Shown here piece after piece: positions 17,499 to 25,668 of a DNA stretch of 64,000 bases. This stretch comes from Candidatus Poribacteria bacterium. Its GTDB lineage: Bacteria > Poribacteria > WGA-4E > PCPOR2b. The position numbers and the translations under genes are program-made. Location: contig OZ244042.1 in the NCBI GenBank assembly GCA_965215015.1, forward strand, positions 3,840,001 through 3,904,000, written 5' to 3'. The stretch's first letter is position 1. Each line of letters opens with the position of its first letter. Under the pieces are notes generated by a model that saw only the letters and a program-made list of their open reading frames with translations, made no database searches and was not told the DNA's origin.

Positions 17499-19253
17499 AT
17501 GAATTTCAGTGACGAAGAGATTAAACGCCAAATGCGCCTCGGTGAAGACAGCCATTGGGAGTTCAAGGCGATTGAGTTCGCGGGGGATGTTCCTAAGAGT
17601 CCTCGTCGTGAGGATCTGGCAGACGAACTCGCCGCATTTGCCAATACGGACGGCGGTGTGGTATTGTGTGGTGTAACCGACAGCGGCGATGCACAAGGTA
17701 TGTCACGCGAGCAGATGGACGCGCTGGAGCGGGTCTTGGGGGAAGTTTGCACAGACATGATTAATCCCTCGATCCGGACTGTGGTTCTTCGCAGAGTAAC
17801 AGAGGAAGAAATGCCATTCCTGCTGGTTGAAGTGCCACAAGGGCATACCCAGCACAAAAGCCCCGGCGGCAGCTACTGCCGAGTTGGCAGCTCAAAACGC
17901 GAGATGACGAGCGATGAGCAGCTGCGTCTGGCACAGCAGCGTGGACAGGCACGCTTCCTCTGGTTTGACAAACAGCCGGTGCAGGAAACCGGATTTGGAT
18001 CCTTGGATGAATCGCTTTGGAAACCTTTGTTGAGTGCCGTAGGTGCCGACAGGCCTGAATCCGCGCTGGAGAAGATGGGCCTCTTGACAAATGACGAAAA
18101 CGGAACAACGCGGGCTACGGTGGCGGGTGTCCTGTTGTGCAGTCGTTCTCCCGAAAAATGGTTGTCTAACGCCTGCATTACCGCAACCTGTTACCGAGGC
18201 AATGACCGTGCCTCCGGGCAGATAGATGCCCAAACCATTACGGGCCCGCTGAATCGACAAATTACTGAGGCGGTTGCCTTTGCAGTTCGCAACATGCGGG
18301 TCGGTGCTTACAAAAGCCCTGCCCGTACCGACTTGCCCCAATACAGCGAGGCTGCCCTGTTTGAAGCGATTGTCAACGCCGTTGCCCACCGCGACTATTC
18401 AATTCGTGGCAGCCAAATTCGACTCTCAATGTTTGCGGACCACCTTGAAATAAACTCTCCCGGTGGGTTGCCGAACAACCTGACCATTGATAGCATGGAA
18501 TTCCGCCAGTCAACGCGCAATGAAGCACTCGCCTCTATACTTGGGGGAATACCTGTTGGAGAGGTTCGGGGTTCGGGCGACCGGCAATGCTTCATGGAGC
18601 GACGGGGGGACGGTGTGCCAATCATCTTTCGTGAAACAGAAGCCTTGAGCGGAAAGCGTCCAGAGTATAAACTAGTTGATAATTCAGACCTTTTTCTTAC
18701 AATCCCGGCCTCTCCCACGGATGCAACACCGGCAACTACCGTAATCATGTGCTACCATTGTGGCCTCCCCGTGCCGGGAATTGAGTTGTTGGCACTGTTT
18801 CCGAATAAGACCTGGAAACACGCAACTACCGACGAGAATGGCGAGGCGCAAGTTGACCTGCATTCTACACACCTGCCCATGACAGTGTTCGCGGCTGCTA
18901 CCGGCTATGCCGCTCACCTTGAATATGACTGGGTGCCAGCGCAGGGGGCACTAGCAATTGAAATGCAAAGCCTGCCTAACGGGGGGGCGGTGATTTTTCC
19001 GGAGGCGACCGGAGCTCTTCCGGGCTTGTCGGGACGTTTGAATCCCATACGCGATAACCATGACAGGACCTACCTTTATGCCTCCAACATCGCCATCAAC
19101 GAGGGCAAACAGCAGCCGGTTTATTTCATTCCCGGTGAGGATTTGCGCCTCACCGATGCCGATGGTAGAGAACTGGTAGTGCGTATTGTCGCAATCAGCG
19201 GTAGATCTGCGCTGGTCGAGTATCGTCCTTATTTCAAAGGAGATGGAAAATGA
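17499..19253 (+). CDS. Schlafen/AlbA_2 + HATPase_c_4 (RecG C-term-like) protein with beta-rich C-terminal domain
   Basis: GEDSHWEFK, AFANTDGG, EAIVNAVAHRDY, SPGGLP, RN..LA, ERRGDGV. Confidence 0.88.
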   Translation: MNFSDEEIKRQMRLGEDSHWEFKAIEFAGDVPKSPRREDLADELAAFANTDGGVVLCGVTDSGDAQGMSREQMDALERVLGEVCTDMINPSIRTVVLRRVTEEEMPFLLVEVPQGHTQHKSPGGSYCRVGSSKREMTSDEQLRLAQQRGQARFLWFDKQPVQETGFGSLDESLWKPLLSAVGADRPESALEKMGLLTNDENGTTRATVAGVLLCSRSPEKWLSNACITATCYRGNDRASGQIDAQTITGPLNRQITEAVAFAVRNMRVGAYKSPARTDLPQYSEAALFEAIVNAVAHRDYSIRGSQIRLSMFADHLEINSPGGLPNNLTIDSMEFRQSTRNEALASILGGIPVGEVRGSGDRQCFMERRGDGVPIIFRETEALSGKRPEYKLVDNSDLFLTIPASPTDATPATTVIMCYHCGLPVPGIELLALFPNKTWKHATTDENGEAQVDLHSTHLPMTVFAAATGYAAHLEYDWVPAQGALAIEMQSLPNGGAVIFPEATGALPGLSGRLNPIRDNHDRTYLYASNIAINEGKQQPVYFIPGEDLRLTDADGRELVVRIVAISGRSALVEYRPYFKGDGK

Positions 19254-19663
19254 GCTTACAGTTGAACACCTTGGCCAAATCTATTGACGCTCTGGAACCT
19301 TCTGTGGAAATCGCGAGCAGTCTTGATACTTCTGATGACGCTTTGTGGGAAACGGTTCGCGCCGGAGTCATTCAAAACTTTAAGGCCGCTTACGAGCGGT
19401 GCTGGAAAATGATGAAGCGAGGGTTGGAAGAAAATATAGGCAACACCTATGTTGATGATGTCACCCGCCGAGAACTGTTTCGTCTGGCAGCGGAAAGCCG
19501 CCTCATCACCGGTGTGGAGCGATGGATGGATTACCACATGGACCGTAACCAGACTTCCCAGGCTTACGATGCAGCGACTGCCCAAAGCATGTTTGAGGAA
19601 GCAACGCAGTTTTCAGGTGATGCTAGACAGCTTTTAGAGACGCTAGAGACACACAATGATTGA
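19250..19663 (+). CDS. HI0074-family nucleotidyltransferase substrate-binding (HEPN) protein
   Basis: RAGVIQNF..AYERCWK, RELFRLA, RNQTSQAYD; ATGA-coupled to upstream gene. Confidence 0.85.
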   Translation: MSLQLNTLAKSIDALEPSVEIASSLDTSDDALWETVRAGVIQNFKAAYERCWKMMKRGLEENIGNTYVDDVTRRELFRLAAESRLITGVERWMDYHMDRNQTSQAYDAATAQSMFEEATQFSGDARQLLETLETHND

Positions 19664-19979
19664 TCTCACTCCCAAATATCTTGAAACGATTCAGCGCATA
19701 TTGGCTGAACATGTGCCGAAATGCGAAGTTCGTGCCTACGGGTCCCGGGTGAAATGGACAGCGAAGGATTATTCCGATCTTGATCTTGCGGTTGTCGGCA
19801 GTGAACCGTTAACCCGGAGGCAGCTGCGCCGATTAATAGAGGCTTTTGAGGAATCCGACGTGCCGATTCGGGTTGATGTGGTAGATTGGCAGTCGTTGGC
19901 AGATTGGTTCAAGCAGGAGATTTCGGAGAAGTACGAGGTGATACAAGAAGCAGAATTTGGAGGCATTTACGGGAATTGA
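19656..19979 (+). CDS. Minimal nucleotidyltransferase (MNT, HI0073-like)
   Basis: AYGSRV...YSDLDLAV, VDVVDW. Confidence 0.9.
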   Translation: MIDLTPKYLETIQRILAEHVPKCEVRAYGSRVKWTAKDYSDLDLAVVGSEPLTRRQLRRLIEAFEESDVPIRVDVVDWQSLADWFKQEISEKYEVIQEAEFGGIYGN

Positions 19980-21890: not shown

Positions 21891-23798
21891 TTAATTTTGT
21901 AGGGCAATTTGAGTAGATAAGACTTTGACGAGTTCATCTAAGTGGACGTGGCGGAAAAACTCCGAAAGCCGCTTCTGCTTCGGTTTCATCGGGAGTAAAA
22001 TAAAATCTGAATAATGTACTTGGAGGCATTCAAACACCATGCGATAGGCCTGACTTGTGGCATATCCGACAACCAAAGTATAGCAGGTGCTGTGCTTATT
22101 AAGATAGGCTTTGAATCGATCGGCACCCAACTGTATCTGCGCGGTATTTCTGGGGGATAGCTGGAAATCATAGCGAACGACGGGTTCCTCAGATTCAAAT
22201 TCTTCTGGTACTGGACCGTAGAGTCCGGAAAGAGTAATTTTGTGAATCGCCCGTTGATTGTTCCCAAAAGCATTTTGAAGCTTGGTGTTGATGATAGTGT
22301 GTGTACGTGAAAGTGAATACGGCTTTTTCCCTGCACACGGAATTGCCAAAAGAATCTTTTTATCCTTCGGGGGGTTGTAATTTGCTGGAACAGAAAAAGA
22401 GTCGGGCGTATAATCGAGTGAAATCGTCGGTTGTTCGTTCTGAAGCGATGAATCCGTTTCTTTTGTTGAAATTGTCGGAAAAAGTTCCAATTGATACGGG
22501 TTACTCTTGACCATACGCCGATTTTCTGACGTGGAGACACCAACAACGGTCTTTGCCATACGATTGGCAAATGCTTTATTATTTTCCATCAACCAGCCGA
22601 CCGCGTTACGGCTGCCTCGCGATGTAGAAGCATGAAGGACTAATTCTTCCAGTGCCTCATCGGCTTCAATGGCGTCCTTCATGCGAGAAAGCAGCCCTGC
22701 TTCCAACTCGAAATTATGCAAGGCGATCGCCGCATAACATTCGCTCTTGTATTTTCCGGTCGAAGTCCGCTTATAGCTGACCTCTTCCATTAAGGTGCGC
22801 TGCATCTCATCAAGGGAAACGTCCCGGCAGATGCGGCAAGTACAGGTCAGTTCATCCAGTTCCATCAGCCTTCGCTTCGTTCGTGTCAATGGGTCTGCGT
22901 AGTTGAGTCTACGTGCTGCTTGAATATAGCTGGTACTGTCAAAGCTATCGACACCCATGTACGCCAATATAGGTGTCAATTCGCCGGAGACGCCGAAAGC
23001 GTGGATGGGAGTATGGTGCCGCTCTGATTCTGGAATCGCTTTTTGAACTCCGCAGATTCGCTCAAGCACTGCCGAATCCTGTTTCCCCCGCAGCGGCACT
23101 AGAGAGCCAACCGCTAGTCCAAAAGAGGGCAGCACGCCTAAAAGCCGATCAAAAACTTGCTTAACATAACTCTCAATATCTGATTGGGATTGTCCATGAC
23201 AGCAAACGTATAAAAAGGGAGGTTGTGCTCTGGTTTCAAGCAATGTAGCGACGCGATAGGCATTTTTTAGACTTAGGTTCATCCGTTTCTCAGCTTCAGA
23301 GCGTTCCAACCCCGGTGGTAACGGATAATCTAAAGAAGCAATAATTTCGCCTCCAAAATCTTCCTGAAGCGCGAAAATATCATCGGCTTCGGTCTCCTTT
23401 TCAATTCCAAATTCCTTTAGGTCTAACCCTGCGTTGTAAAGCAGCTTAAATCCACCGGAGTCCAGAAATAGTGGGGCATTATAAACACCGTTTACCTCTT
23501 GATACCACTCACGCATTGTTTTTTGACGCCACGTTGTTAAATGTTTCCCCTCAAACGGGAAGTCCAGAAAGTGCAAGACTTGGGATAACATCGGGACATC
23601 GTGCTTCATCAAGTCACGGAGAAGGTACTTCCAGAGACCTCCTCCCCGTGGGGTGGAGCCGGTCATAAACGAAACCACTGGATATAGTATCGGCGTTGAC
23701 AAAGGTGATAAGACTTCGCCATCTCGTTGCAAACGAAGCTCACCGATTCTGCCGCCTTTCCTCTGGACGGTCGTATGGTAAGTTGGAGTTGTGTTCAT
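21891..23798 (-). CDS. tRNA-guanine transglycosylase-family domain fused to an ArcS-type (DUF5591-like) domain
   Basis: FLDSGGF, ASLDYP, GLAVGSLVP, PIHAFGV, GVDSFDS, CTCRIC-x36-H; C-terminal PCAGKKPYSLSRTH and GPVPEEFE..P...YD. Confidence 0.88.
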   Translation of the reverse strand: MNTTPTYHTTVQRKGGRIGELRLQRDGEVLSPLSTPILYPVVSFMTGSTPRGGGLWKYLLRDLMKHDVPMLSQVLHFLDFPFEGKHLTTWRQKTMREWYQEVNGVYNAPLFLDSGGFKLLYNAGLDLKEFGIEKETEADDIFALQEDFGGEIIASLDYPLPPGLERSEAEKRMNLSLKNAYRVATLLETRAQPPFLYVCCHGQSQSDIESYVKQVFDRLLGVLPSFGLAVGSLVPLRGKQDSAVLERICGVQKAIPESERHHTPIHAFGVSGELTPILAYMGVDSFDSTSYIQAARRLNYADPLTRTKRRLMELDELTCTCRICRDVSLDEMQRTLMEEVSYKRTSTGKYKSECYAAIALHNFELEAGLLSRMKDAIEADEALEELVLHASTSRGSRNAVGWLMENNKAFANRMAKTVVGVSTSENRRMVKSNPYQLELFPTISTKETDSSLQNEQPTISLDYTPDSFSVPANYNPPKDKKILLAIPCAGKKPYSLSRTHTIINTKLQNAFGNNQRAIHKITLSGLYGPVPEEFESEEPVVRYDFQLSPRNTAQIQLGADRFKAYLNKHSTCYTLVVGYATSQAYRMVFECLQVHYSDFILLPMKPKQKRLSEFFRHVHLDELVKVLSTQIALQN

Positions 23799-23901
23799 AG
23801 TACGATGTTTTTCCGATGGCCATTTAAGGACTAATTTGGTTGAGTGGAATCAGTTCCAAATGCTGAGCTGGTATATATTCCATCAAAATTTAAATTTAAT
23901 G

Positions 23902-24258
23902 TAGGACTTACGCAGTTGAACGTTCAAACTTTCGTAATTCGGTGACTCCTCAAATACTGGGTGTGTTCCTCAACAGTGTTTGGTGAATTGAAAATACCAA
24001 GTATGTTGCGTGCCAGTCCTGTCTCAACTCACCTAGAACGTTGTGTAACCGTGTCGGGTGTCCACTGTTGCACAACAGGGTTGGTATCTATACGACTCAC
24101 GCCGCCCGATGAATCGGGTAACTCCAGTTCAGCCGCCAGGAGTCGGCACGGTCCGCTGTGCTGTCATTGGCACAACGGCTACGGCATACGGCGTATGCCG
24201 ACTCCCTTAAAGACGCGGGTTGAATTGCGCGACTACAAGCTCAAGTGCGTAACTCCTA
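23902..24258. mobile_element. 357-bp MITE-like element, TA-flanked 18-bp TIRs
   Basis: TAGGACTTACGCAGTTGA ... TCAAGTGCGTAACTCCTA (16/18 complementary). Confidence 0.75.
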
Positions 24259-24604
24259 AAATGAATAAAGTGGCGGTTTTTCATGGCCGCACCGAACGCC
24301 CCATGAAACCAAATATTGAAGCCTATTTTGTGCAACATGATTTTGAATCGTCTCCGGCAATATTGACTGGCGACATGATAAAACAATCAACCCAACATTT
24401 TCCAAGGGTGGTTCTCAAAACAACTTTATCATTCGGCAATTATACGATCCCTTCCGTCAGTGGGGCATCAACACTCAAAAGGAAGTTCGCCCACTTTTCT
24501 TTTCATTCGATTCACGGACGCCCCCAGTGTTGTTGGGAACATGCATTTGCCAATAAGAACGATTACAACAGTATCCGATTGGTAAAATCCGCGAGTTATC
24601 AGAT

Positions 24605-25621
24605 TCATGAACCTACCTGAATATTTAACCTCAACTCATCAAGCCGTTTTTGAGCAATCTGATTATACGCTTCTTCTTTCTCAATCATTACCCATTTTCG
24701 GTTCTGTTTTTCCGCGATGACCCCGGTCGTACCAGTCCCTGAGAATGGGTCAAGAATAAGGTCGTCTTCATTGGTTCCCGCCAAGATGAGCCGTTCAACA
24801 ACCTGAAGCGGCTTTTGGGAAGGGTGTTTTCCATGTTTTCGTTCCGAAGGCTTAATTAGTGGAATTTCCCACATATTCCGCATCTGTTTGTTATTATTTA
24901 TCGCCTTCATCGTATGATAGTTGAAGGTCCAATTCTTCGCCTTCTTACTCTCATTGTTGACCGCCCATAAGATGAACTCGGTAGACTCAGTAAACATGCG
25001 ACAAGTAATATTGGGCTGTGCATTCGGTTTATACCAAACAATTTGGGTAATAATTCGCCGGTCAAATATATTTTGCAGAATGAATCCAAGCGTAAAGATA
25101 CTGTGAAATGAACCAAAAACAAAGATATTCCCGTTTGGCTTGACGACTCTCAAAACTTCAGTAATCCAATCGAGTGTAAATTGGAAATATTCGTCTTTTG
25201 AAAAAATATCCCAGCCTTCTTGCATGGTAATATGAGAACTGAACGCCCAGCCCAACCCTTTCTTTTGAGATATGTTGAACGGTGGGTCAGCAATGCAGCA
25301 ATCGAAGGCACTGTCCGGCAAAAAAGGCAAAATACTGAGGCAATCGCCGCATAAAATTTGTTTGACGGGCAGATTCTCAAGTAGGCTATCCAAAGGTAAG
25401 GTGAGATCCGCTTCTGATAGAGCTGTCTGTATCTGATTTTCTGAAGCAACTGTGGATTTTGCTCCCGGATCTGGATTGAGAGTCGTCTTCGGTTGGAGCG
25501 GGTGAACTCCCGTTTCAAGATATTGAATCAGTTGAGCTTTATTCAACGAAGAGTATCCTCTTAATCTACGTTTTTTCGCCTCTCTTCTCAGATCTTTGTC
25601 TCGCATTTGATTAAAGTTCAT
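24605..25621 (-). CDS. Beta-class N6/N4 DNA methyltransferase (DpnB-like) with N-terminal Rho_N/HeH-like motif
   Basis: IADPPFN, KPNG, WYKPN..PN, KHPSQKP, LDPFSGTGTT; N-terminal DLRREAKKRRLRGYSSLNKAQLIQYL. Confidence 0.92.
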   Translation of the reverse strand: MNFNQMRDKDLRREAKKRRLRGYSSLNKAQLIQYLETGVHPLQPKTTLNPDPGAKSTVASENQIQTALSEADLTLPLDSLLENLPVKQILCGDCLSILPFLPDSAFDCCIADPPFNISQKKGLGWAFSSHITMQEGWDIFSKDEYFQFTLDWITEVLRVVKPNGNIFVFGSFHSIFTLGFILQNIFDRRIITQIVWYKPNAQPNITCRMFTESTEFILWAVNNESKKAKNWTFNYHTMKAINNNKQMRNMWEIPLIKPSERKHGKHPSQKPLQVVERLILAGTNEDDLILDPFSGTGTTGVIAEKQNRKWVMIEKEEAYNQIAQKRLDELRLNIQVGS

Positions 25622-25668
25622 TATACGCAGCCCGTACTGCTTCAAGAAAACTATACCGTAAGGTCTTC

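Follow-up and report, generated by a model that had tools for sequence, protein, structure and literature searches.

What is the substrate of a bacterial protein that joins a TGT-type barrel to the C1 domain of ArcS and is encoded beside a DNA methyltransferase (MTase)? Such a gene lies in the window analyzed here, a 64,000-nucleotide stretch of the genome of a Candidatus Poribacteria sponge symbiont (Table 1). 7-Deazaguanine marks in DNA have been described both in bacterial Dpd systems, as dPreQ0 and dADG, and in phages, with eight derivatives that include dG+. We propose, at roughly even odds (about 0.5), that the fusion is an enzyme that inserts and modifies a 7-deazaguanine in DNA, here without Dpd restriction partners. 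Marking of DNA rather than tRNA is most likely, since relatives elsewhere are found inside Dpd-like defense islands; thus, we infer the DNA substrate from genomic context together with the absence of RNA-binding domains.

Table 1. Features of the fusion gene and its neighbors, in window coordinates
Feature	Position	Strand	Evidence
Whole ORF, 635 aa: TGT barrel + linker + ArcS-C1/DUF5591	21891..23798	(-)	translation, Pfam, NCBIfam, homologues, AF2
TGT-type (beta/alpha)8 barrel + Zn subdomain, residues 1-415	22554..23798	(-)	Pfam TGT, AF2, Foldseek, conservation
Linker, disordered, residues 420-454	22437..22541	(-)	pLDDT < 50
ArcS C1/DUF5591 Rossmann-like domain, residues 458-635	21894..22427	(-)	Pfam DUF5591, NCBIfam ArcS alpha, 2q07
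Beta-class N6/N4 DNA methyltransferase, CcrM-like	24605..25645	(-)	Pfam, NCBIfam, PADLOC MTase_II
DUF6996/DUF6997 type II restriction nuclease relic	~24265..24611	(+)	tblastn, Pfam, PADLOC REase_II

The fusion gene is real, far beyond chance: 425 homologues were found at E<=1e-3, the two-domain layout is kept, and both Pfam domains are present in 119 of the best 120. The encoded enzyme is one of an unnamed and widespread family with this two-domain build. The protein exceeds the Pfam thresholds for both the TGT superfamily (PF01702, residues 106–382, 54.1 bits against a cut-off of 26.3) and DUF5591, the ArcS C1 core (PF17884, residues 472–591, 53.8 bits against 26); the best stretch for NCBIfam ArcS alpha covers residues 472–592. 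Neither PUA, TGT_C2 nor C2 is matched by Pfam. The AlphaFold2 (AF2) model (mean pLDDT 90.8, pTM 0.89) comprises the barrel, the disordered linker and a single Rossmann-like domain within the residue limits of Table 1; it has no third domain, and the chain stops with C1. By Foldseek, the best match of the barrel is arcTGT (1iq8, E 5.8e-20), and the C1 domain was matched to the AF0587 structure 2q07. A sequence-only reading of this DNA had described an intact ORF with both catalytic Asp motifs, a CxCxxC-x36-H Zn site, the PCx3KPYx2Sx2H signature and no PUA domain, all of which is borne out by sequence, conservation and model. DSGGF occupies residues 113–117, GVDSFDS 282–288 and CTCRIC 319–324, with His361 exactly 36 residues past Cys324, and the full signature motif (PCAGKKPYSLSRTH, residues 487–500) lies inside the C1 domain.

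The key residues of the barrel are D113, F117, D157, H201, D287 and the Zn site C319/C321/C324/H361, which is conserved across the family. Among 48 family members, D113, S114, G116, D157, H266 and H361 are invariant, and 90% or more of the members retain H201, D287, C319, C321, C324, C488, K492 and S497; the family alignment also shows conservation of P493 and Y494 next to C488, K492 and S497 in C1. In canonical haloarchaeal ArcS N-domains, the equivalents of S114, G116, D157 and H266 are lost in the alignment. Therefore, catalytic constraint acts on the fusion barrel, which sets it apart from the ArcS N-domain. The H201 column corresponds to the His at chain position 201 of the DpdA structure 7ui4 (aligned via P0273), which is DpdA His181 once a 20-residue tag offset is removed. 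The DpdA active site is given as Asp95, Asp130, His181 and Asp256 (PMC10164549), and the fusion equivalents are D113, D157, H201 and D287. By contrast, column 201 is Gln in arcTGT and bTGT, and the fusion pocket combines GSLV with H201 where three arcTGT sequences combine Q with G(A/S)V(V/T). The barrel is best explained as a catalytically intact guanine-exchange (TGT) domain akin to stand-alone, DpdA-like enzymes.

Family scores leave the protein outside the curated groups. It reaches 87.2 bits on the ArcS equivalog NF040592 (cut-off 440), 79.3 bits on the arcTGT/TgtA equivalog TIGR00432 (cut-off 350; the genuine arcTGT P0270 scores 521), 26.5 bits on the bacterial tRNA G34 TGT model TIGR00430 (cut-off 306.75), and 25.7 bits (NCBIfam) or 24 bits (PADLOC) on DpdA (NF041059; PADLOC PDLC02807; cut-off 200). 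Against the proposed reading, the barrel is closer by sequence score to arcTGT than to canonical DpdA, and a profile of the fusion family scores 122 bits on 1iq8 versus 20 on 7ui4. In the tree it clusters with stand-alone short TGTs (SH-aLRT 91.3), with arcTGT and ArcS placed separately (83), a split that FastTree reproduces; monophyly of the fusion family itself is weakly supported (SH-aLRT 64.5). The earlier reading of an arcTGT barrel thus needs correction, as this is no typical arcTGT: it groups among the short TGTs and has His in place of Gln.

Does the host need this protein for tRNA? A separate canonical tgt, for which the sequence-only reading had advised a search, is present in the genome (554 bits, at G000:C1:4695101), so the fusion is not the G34 enzyme; queC (259 bits) and queF (109 bits) are present too. 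Another TGT-like gene, a GNAT-TGT fusion (L003), lies about 275 kb from the fusion gene. The latter is patchily distributed, in 54 of 176 Poribacteria genomes with some copies broken, and deletion has left only a 27-codon stub of the second paralogue in the host genome. In six loci a PTPS-family gene abuts the paralogue start; with 34 bits it falls short of the 89-bit cut-off of the QueD model. Counting against the DNA reading, host matches to DpdJ and DpdK are weak (39 and 22 bits), and no DpdJ/K/H, DUF6884, GHKL ATPase or que cluster adjoins the fusion in the window or in any of the 26 Poribacteria-type loci. No dpd cluster (dpdB/C plus the restriction genes dpdD-K) was found in the window, and no biosynthetic cluster surrounds the gene. 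The second and third Poribacteria subgroups occupy syntenic chromosomal contexts (RsgA, aminotransferase, cyclophilin, Fe-ADH) that contain no defense genes.

The strongest evidence for the DNA reading is the genomic context of the relatives. The claim that no dpd or que genes flank the gene holds for the window, but relatives have both. Among the best 80 of 229 metagenomic relatives, many of them close kin so that the loci are not independent, the neighbors include a GHKL ATPase (40 loci), DUF6884 (33), a second, short TGT (32), PTPS/QueD (19), QueC (17), radical-SAM QueE-like proteins (15), a DpdJ-like helicase (19; PADLOC DpdJ, 180 bits), a DpdK-like PLD protein (13), a DpdH-like protein (8) and a YhhQ-type Vut_1 transporter (5). 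With the GHKL ATPase excluded, at least one island gene lies beside the fusion in 55 of these 80. In 14 of them DpdJ/K/H-like genes occur with no TGT besides the fusion, which could therefore be the sole modifier there. Two haloarchaeal megaplasmids provide further defense-type contexts: on the Haladaptatus plasmid the relative sits in a layout matching the metagenomic islands, and on the Natrinema plasmid it sits among helicases and ATPases. On the negative side, the nearest non-Poribacteria relatives (L065-L067, 48–51% identity) have an ABC transporter, a sigma factor and Lon as neighbors, and the search revealed no copy of the fusion in phages or other viruses. Because Dpd-like islands containing que genes surround relatives, a DNA or defense role, as first suggested from the letters of the window, is the best-supported reading. 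JGI labels the close homologues P0015, P0023 and P0097 as 7-cyano-7-deazaguanine tRNA-ribosyltransferase, and RefSeq names the two full-length plasmid relatives tRNA-guanine transglycosylase; the family analysis corrects these public names.

Several other readings have to be weighed against this one. The enzyme might belong to an archaeosine-like bacterial pathway, placing preQ0 at a tRNA or rRNA site other than G34 and amidinating it there. Its top-scoring curated families are indeed tRNA enzymes (ArcS alpha, TgtA), its best structural match is arcTGT, and the second and third subgroups live in syntenic surroundings free of defense genes. In addition, the PUA domain of arcTGT is reportedly dispensable for archaeosine formation, and substrate choice by ArcS is loose, in that even preQ0 nucleoside or nucleotide is reported to be accepted (PMC11298593). 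We nevertheless consider an RNA substrate unlikely, if worth keeping in mind, given the lack of C2 and PUA, the embedding of relatives in Dpd-like islands, the His that replaces Gln at the DpdA His181 position, a patchy distribution with pseudogenes and a deleted paralogue, and scores far under the curated cut-offs. Alternatively, only the second step might be carried out: the barrel would flip out and hold a preQ0 inserted in DNA by another TGT, with C1 as the catalytic part, making the protein an analogue of DpdC. A role of this sort on tRNA is assumed for the N-domain of ArcS. DpdC is described as working independently of DpdA and DpdB (PMC10164549), candidate inserting partners exist in the host (the GNAT-TGT fusion) and, as short TGTs alongside DUF6884 and GHKL ATPases, among the best 80 of 229 loci. 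The separate short TGT in 32 of these 80 islands counts against an insertion role, and the fusion may not insert. On the other side, all or nearly all family members keep the catalytic Asp and base-reading residues, several of which are lost in ArcS N-domains, 14 loci with DpdJ/K/H-like genes offer no other TGT, and the GNAT-TGT gene is distant. We judge this reading unlikely as well.

It is quite improbable that no self-DNA mark is made at all, the barrel being a glycosylase-type effector or sensor acting on foreign modified DNA, or the protein an enzyme for free nucleotides or a small molecule. Phage DNA carrying 7-deazaguanine is reported to be the target of certain glycosylases (bioRxiv 10.1101/2025.10.29.685425), TGT-like folds turn up in other immune contexts (e.g., a Cap10 match of 26 bits), and the action of ArcS on preQ0 nucleotides would suit such a role. 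However, the que genes and YhhQ-type transporter beside relatives point to base supply for insertion, a conserved nitrile-modifying domain makes little sense in an excision enzyme, and a biosynthetic cluster around the fusion is absent.

The neighboring MTase invites one more reading, in which methylation and deazaguanine modification would be coupled in an integrated two-mark system. The beta-class MTase, noticed earlier as co-oriented and some 0.8 kb away, is 806 nt upstream of the fusion in the same orientation, and its motif order (DPPF, then FSGTGTTG) is that of the beta class; it scores 176.6 bits on Pfam N6_N4_Mtase and 225.6 bits on NCBIfam CcrM, under the 830 cut-off. Its alignment with homologues begins no earlier than residue 9, which places the probable true start at 25621. 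The suspected restriction-modification (R-M) relic is also real: it is convergent with the MTase, has an internal deletion and frame breaks, and its DUF6996/DUF6997 nuclease pieces are 50–80% identical to the intact L015/L019 genes (tblastn). The AT-rich patch said to contain these genes is present (GC 0.455–0.469 over window 22–26 kb versus 0.51–0.56 on both flanks) but mild, as other window regions drop to 0.436. The MTase comes from a type II R-M cassette whose nuclease is one of two alternatives, with intact copies next to the MTase in L015, L016, L017, L019 and L026; in the window the pair is incomplete, the MTase being the intact half of a system whose nuclease has decayed. The proposed pairing with methylation is found in 9 of 11 close Poribacteria loci (at least 70% identity), where, as in the window, the MTase is directly upstream, in at least four flanking contexts, with a gap of only 66–88 nt in L036 and L018 and with identities of MTase and enzyme declining roughly in parallel. 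But the survey of neighborhoods limits this link to close Poribacteria: the MTase is next to the fusion in 0 of 15 more distant Poribacteria-type loci and in 0 of the best 80 of 229 metagenomic relatives. Moreover, two unrelated type II nucleases lie between the two genes in five loci, with the relic of one in the window, so the MTase has its own cognate partner, and in L011, L014 and L021 the MTase is missing although context and enzyme are retained. A coupled system is, in our view, very improbable.

Returning to a DNA insert-and-modify enzyme, preQ0 would be supplied by the host queuosine pathway, and the barrel would swap a DNA guanine for it, with Asp287 as the predicted nucleophile, Asp113 as the predicted general acid/base, and Asp157 and His201 predicted to read the base. 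The tethered C1 domain would then turn the 7-nitrile into an amidine-type group, yielding dG+ or a lysine adduct. Elsewhere the mark would belong to Dpd-like modification-restriction islands; in the host Poribacteria genome the enzyme is found without those restriction genes, adjoining an ordinary type II R-M remnant. A phage C1-only protein, ArcS2, together with DpdA2 gives dG+ in plasmid DNA in E. coli (PMC10516641, Table 3), and the fusion C1 domain is best explained as the same module that ArcS2 uses on DNA. We hold as possible, though rather doubtful, the more specific proposal that one polypeptide carries out both steps, placing preQ0 in chromosomal DNA and turning it, in cis, into archaeosine-type dG+ or a lysine-amidine adduct. 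Salmonella DpdA is reported to require the ATPase DpdB (PMC10164549), and no dpdB-like partner was seen at the window locus.

If the single-polypeptide proposal is true, genomes of Poribacteria, haloarchaea and other cellular lineages would contain a DNA base that has been seen only in phages to date, and queCDE, the fusion, DUF6884, the short TGT, the GHKL ATPase and DpdJ/K/H would make up a new Dpd-like type; the enzyme of sponge symbionts would persist as an orphan, marking self DNA or giving protection from foreign nucleases. With this family, cells would have a way to make an ArcS-type derivative in DNA, insertion and modification would be combined in one protein, and a new island layout would become recognizable. 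For the window alone the finding is more modest: a modification gene on its own, with a decayed R-M system as neighbor.

How does the fusion compare with known systems? The stand-alone short TGTs are its nearest barrel relatives in both trees and share most signature residues, but have no C1 domain. They occur in plasmid and defense contexts (Haladaptatus, 352 aa; Picosynechococcus, 307 aa, between two DEAD helicases and adjoining dpdA; Nostoc, 311 aa); in the tree alignment those of Picosynechococcus and Nostoc have Q at column 201 and are missing the Zn Cys columns, and no characterized member was found among the three. arcTGT provides the best sequence and structure match to the barrel and Zn subdomain, yet differs in Gln at column 201 and G(A/S)VV in place of His and GSLV; the fusion stays far below the arcTGT cut-off, lacks C2 and PUA, and falls in a separate clade. 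With DpdA of S. Montevideo (7ui4) it has in common a TGT barrel that lacks tRNA-binding domains, the Asp/Asp/His/Asp set whose His separates both from arcTGT and bTGT, and, in its relatives, adjoining DpdJ/K/H-like and que genes, all at very low sequence similarity (25.7 bits by NCBIfam, 20 by profile). The proposed logic, preQ0 insertion followed by nitrile modification on DNA, is that of DpdA plus DpdC; however, DpdC is a separate DUF328 protein where the fusion would use an ArcS C1 domain in cis, and the ParB-like DpdB has no counterpart at the fusion locus, as restriction genes have none in the window. The idea that two otherwise separate proteins had been joined does not hold, as canonical ArcS is described as already having a TGT-like N-domain and C1 in one protein (PMC10516641). 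ArcS thus shares with the fusion the C1/DUF5591 domain with its full PCx3KPYx2Sx2H motif and the TGT-like domain N-terminal to it; the difference is that the fusion barrel is catalytically intact, retaining residues lost in ArcS, and that C2 and PUA are missing. Phage ArcS2, finally, resembles the fusion in having no PUA and a DNA-linked context, but is a stand-alone C1 domain of viruses, whereas the fusion is a two-domain protein of cells.

The fusion ORF matches Pfam TGT at residues 106–382 (54.1 bits) and DUF5591, the catalytic core (C1) of the archaeosine synthase ArcS, at residues 472–591 (53.8 bits), both above cut-off. Among the NCBIfam models, only the general TGT superfamily model was passed (60 bits versus a cut-off of 47.6), with ArcS alpha (87 bits, cut-off 440), the archaeal tRNA enzyme arcTGT TgtA (79 bits, cut-off 350) and the DNA-guanine transglycosylase DpdA (25.7 bits, cut-off 200) all falling below. 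The motifs named in the sequence-only reading were all found: DSGGF at 113, GVDSFDS at 282, the Zn site CTCRIC at 319 with His361 lying 36 residues beyond Cys324, and the C1 signature PCAGKKPYSLSRTH starting at residue 487. The AlphaFold2 model, built on an alignment of 48 family members, is confident (mean pLDDT 90.8, pTM 0.89) and comprises a barrel with a helical Zn subdomain (residues 1–415), a disordered linker (420–454) and a single Rossmann-like domain (458–635). The claimed absence of a PUA domain holds as well, as the model contains no PUA-like third domain and Pfam returned no domain match beyond TGT and DUF5591. Foldseek placed P. horikoshii arcTGT first (1iq8, E 5.8e-20), then bacterial and eukaryotic TGTs. 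The C-terminal domain matches in sequence the DUF5591 protein AF0587 (structure 2q07); DUF6884 was rejected as its kin (pairwise BLASTP E-value 1.5).

Features in the window and at related loci, with coordinates
Feature	Coordinates	Strand	Remarks
TGT-DUF5591 fusion ORF	window 21891–23798	-	635 aa
DNA methyltransferase (MTase), beta-class N6/N4	window 24605–25645	-	Pfam 176.6 bits; CcrM model 225.6 bits (cut-off 830); PADLOC MTase_II match
Nuclease relic pieces	window ~24265–24611	+	tblastn, 50–80% identical to DUF6996+DUF6997 protein
Patch of Schlafen AlbA_2 + HATPase_c_4 protein and HEPN/MNT pair	window 17499–19979	+	Schlafen protein 584 aa; patch ~2 kb from fusion
Metabolic genes farther out in window			amidohydrolase; short-chain dehydrogenase (SDR); hydantoinase B; GFO/IDH oxidoreductase; 2-hydroxyacid dehydrogenase
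Second-paralogue site, own genome (L042)	G000:C1:4335432–4338746		TGT-DUF5591 deleted to 27-codon stub
Third TGT-like gene, own genome (L003)	G000:C1:3585805–3589461		~275 kb from fusion
GNAT-TGT ORF within L003	L003 1420–2997	-	525 aa
Picosynechococcus plasmid locus (L060)	NZ_CP014001, 1074–9403		annotated 691-aa dpdA with 307-aa short TGT

Which transglycosylase the barrel resembles can be approached through its active site. In the 48 family members D113, S114, G116, D157, H266 and H361 are invariant, and ≥90% of members retain H201, D287, C319, C321, C324, C488, K492 and S497. DSGGF/Y, His201 and GS(L/M/I)V are common to the fusion family and most stand-alone short TGTs (337–356 aa); column 201 is Gln in arcTGT and in the canonical bacterial tgt of the own genome, and columns 231–234 of arcTGT form a G(A/S)V(V/T) pocket. 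The His of one short TGT, P0273, aligned with chain residue 201 of the DpdA structure 7ui4. Since chain Asp115 of 7ui4 aligned with the DSG Asp, the offset is 20 and this His is the equivalent of DpdA His181, a position at which the same alignment output has Gln in arcTGT. In the available part of PMC10164549, the DpdA active site is given as Asp95, Asp130, His181 and Asp256, with Phe99 stacking on the base.

One alternative is that the fusion is simply an ArcS that lacks the PUA domain. As references we took the canonical ArcS and arcTGT of two haloarchaeal genomes (ArcS 847 and 818 bits, arcTGT 630 and 623 bits, all above cut-offs). In the alignment columns, the N-domains of these ArcS have lost S114, G116, D157 (Pro instead) and H266. 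In two barrel trees (57 sequences and 347 columns, with the canonical bacterial tgt as root), ArcS and arcTGT grouped together (FastTree 0.72, SH-aLRT 83), and the fusion family fell with the short TGTs (SH-aLRT 91.3), near the 352-aa Haladaptatus TGT of a Dpd-like island; monophyly of the fusion family itself was weakly supported (SH-aLRT 64.5). The alternative was rejected because the residues lost in ArcS are kept in the barrel and the grouping differs in both trees. By raw score the family profile is much nearer to arcTGT (122 bits, versus 20 bits for Salmonella DpdA), which is why the barrel is described as DpdA-like in active site and genomic company, not as a DpdA orthologue. The barrel-plus-C1 architecture may be the ancestral one. 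A second alternative, that the fusion is the genome's only tgt, is ruled out. The proposed check for a separate canonical tgt was run on the own genome, a single 5.94-Mb contig, and found one elsewhere (554 bits); of the que genes to be sought, queC was present (259 bits), and also queF (109 bits). It follows that the fusion does not serve as the G34 enzyme and that this genome should have a supply of preQ0. DUF5591 occurs there only once. The third TGT-like gene of the genome encodes a GNAT acetyltransferase fused to a TGT-like barrel, in which the Asp/His set is kept and the first Zn Cys is Leu; the accessible text on BREX-related 'BRC' systems (2026, PMC12839542) describes a modification arm of GNAT plus TGT, sometimes fused.

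The genomic company of the distant relatives is informative. In an exhaustive representative search, 649 clusters reached E≤1e-3 and 104 reached E≤1e-30; a good many are full length, at 33–47% identity, and in a protein atlas such clusters fall in Bacteria (Chloroflexota most frequent) and Methanobacteriota. Full-length relatives (33% identity) were also found by tblastn on two haloarchaeal megaplasmids. The Haladaptatus plasmid (L044) carries a DEAD/DEAH helicase, a PLD-like protein, DUF6884, the 352-aa TGT, an ATP-binding protein and a large AAA protein as neighbours, as well as a second fusion copy of 673 aa; on the Natrinema plasmid, the gene lies amid helicases and ATPases. From a metagenome scan, the loci of the best 80 of 229 relatives were kept, ORFs were called and clustered, and recurrent clusters were annotated; the loci include many near relatives and are not independent of one another. 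The 80 loci contain a GHKL-type ATPase (40), DUF6884 (33), a second TGT of 380–440 aa (32), PTPS/QueD-like (19), DpdJ-like helicase (19; PADLOC DpdJ, 180 bits), QueC (17; 247 bits), radical-SAM QueE-like (15), DpdK-like PLD (13), DpdH-like (8), PbeA/PbeC (6), Vut_1/YhhQ-type transporter (5) and HerA plus NurA-like (3) genes. At least one que, Dpd-like, DUF6884 or short-TGT neighbour is present in 55 of them, and 14 have DpdJ/K/H-like genes with no other TGT; 21 have none of those neighbours, nor the GHKL ATPase, 10 of these being contigs shorter than 5 kb. The loci nearest to Poribacteria (L065–L067, 48–51% identity) adjoin an ABC transporter, a sigma factor and Lon, and relatives at 42–45% identity have a DpdJ-like helicase, PTPS, YhhQ or HerA/NurA.

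A recurrent layout emerges, in which queC-queE-queD is divergent from fusion–DUF6884–short TGT–ATPase, the ATPase being of the GHKL type, with DpdJ-, DpdK- and DpdH-like genes close by and Pbe genes sometimes. Examples are L087, L088, L094, ~30 further metagenome loci and the Haladaptatus plasmid; the island looks like a Dpd-like system type, of which we found no description in the portions of the literature available. Compact islands such as L132 and L141 have DpdJ-like, DpdK-like, fusion and YhhQ genes. Thus, the earlier remark that no que or dpd genes flank the fusion is true of the window, where helicase-nuclease genes are absent around it as well, but untrue of the family elsewhere. A phage-borne origin was rejected, as tblastn against 50,697 phage records came back empty; scanning viral contigs with a pattern yielded a single weak match, to the TGT part only, and no fusion. 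On the Picosynechococcus plasmid, the short TGT is flanked on both sides by DEAD/DEAH helicases. The representative search also returned P0255 (418 aa), with a TnpB-like N-terminal part and a DUF5591/ArcS-C1-like part; this protein could be either a fusion or an artefact of gene calling.

Within Poribacteria, a word-indexed search found 425 homologues; 119 of the 120 best have both domains (63–92% identity), many on megabase contigs. In the genome survey of the phylum, 54 of 176 genomes have the gene (by family 24/28, 9/11, 0/7 and 19/112; one genus 0/40), with several copies broken by stops. Gene maps of 26 full-length loci distinguished three layouts. The first, at ≥70% identity, comprises 11 loci and the window; in 9 of the 11 loci the MTase lies immediately upstream of the fusion, in at least four different flanking contexts. 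Between the two genes lies a MutH/Sau3AI-like nuclease on the same strand (L016, L017, L026), a DUF6996/6997 nuclease on the opposite strand (L015, L019), a 116-aa ORF with no assignment (L012) or no nuclease (L013, L018, L036; gap 88 nt in L018 and 66 nt in L036); the MTases paired with these two unrelated nuclease families are each 74–89% identical to that of the window. L011 and L014 have the fusion and no MTase, and L021 has the same flanks as L018, yet the MTase is missing. The second layout is a second paralogue (63–68% identity), often in the same genomes and in conserved chromosomal context. In 6 loci a divergent PTPS-family gene ends 1–5 nt ahead of the paralogue start, and in 2 more that gene is degraded. 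This neighbour was not accepted as a certified QueD (34 bits, model cut-off 89). Ahead of the paralogue stub in the own genome, the PTPS-family gene is still intact. A radical-SAM LAM-like gene three genes downstream was rejected as a lysine-linked partner and given no weight, because the own genome still has it despite having lost the paralogue. In the third layout (50–58% identity), the fusion is flanked by a GNAT gene on one side and an Fe-ADH gene on the other.

In the window itself, the true MTase start is probably 25621, since homologues align from residue 9. The 806-nt gap between MTase and TGT gene has no good ORF on the same strand, and the relic within it shows an internal deletion among its pieces. 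L015 and L019 have the DUF6996+DUF6997 protein intact (259–272 aa), and PADLOC classes it among type II restriction enzymes. The MTase is therefore the half of a type II R-M system that has survived, and the suspected R-M relic beside the fusion was borne out. The pairing with methylation fared less well as a general claim: the MTase was found in none of the 15 mapped Poribacteria-type loci below 70% identity, and no relative of it in the 80 metagenomic loci (best 80 of 229). We conclude that the pairing is specific to this lineage, a neighbourhood in which a type II R-M system has decayed. As to the AT-richer patch, a dip is present (GC 0.455–0.469 at 22–26 kb, 0.51–0.56 beside), but it is mild and inside the window's own range (0.436–0.575). 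After the Schlafen AlbA_2 gene comes an overlapping pair of HEPN-type (NTase_sub_bind) and MNT-type nucleotidyltransferase genes, and this stretch is a small defence or toxin-antitoxin patch.

According to the available part of PMC10164549, DpdA swaps guanine in DNA for preQ0, with one Asp as nucleophile and another as acid/base, and the nitrile is then altered on DNA by DpdC. ArcS, in the text accessible from PMC11298593, attaches lysine to the nitrile of preQ0, and even a nucleotide can serve as its substrate. Furthermore, Table 3 in the available part of PMC10516641 has the viral C1-only ArcS2 with DpdA2 yielding dG+ in plasmid DNA in E. coli. Because the fusion joins an intact exchange barrel through a flexible linker to C1 and has no RNA-binding domains, we propose that the barrel would insert preQ0 into DNA and that C1 would convert it in cis to an amidine-type base. 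In the own genome DpdJ (39 bits) and DpdK (22 bits) are not convincing, and any mark made there would be an orphan. The best-supported reading is a 7-deazaguanine enzyme that acts on DNA or is linked to defence, to which we give roughly even odds (about 0.5). The role first suggested is partly supported in that form, with relatives amid que and Dpd-like genes, and its methylation component is confined to one lineage.

Public records give tRNA-enzyme names to three close homologues and to both full-length relatives on plasmids. The fusion lies outside the curated DpdA, ArcS and arcTGT families, because it misses all three score cut-offs and has neither PUA nor C2. 'DUF5591' turned up in a single work of the literature available. 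The deazaguanine papers, in their available parts, describe ArcS domain splits and viral C1-only forms, and contain no description of a cellular (bacterial or archaeal) barrel-plus-C1 fusion in Dpd-like islands, although supplements may list such. Among known systems, the fusion would work most like DpdA plus ArcS2 or DpdC.
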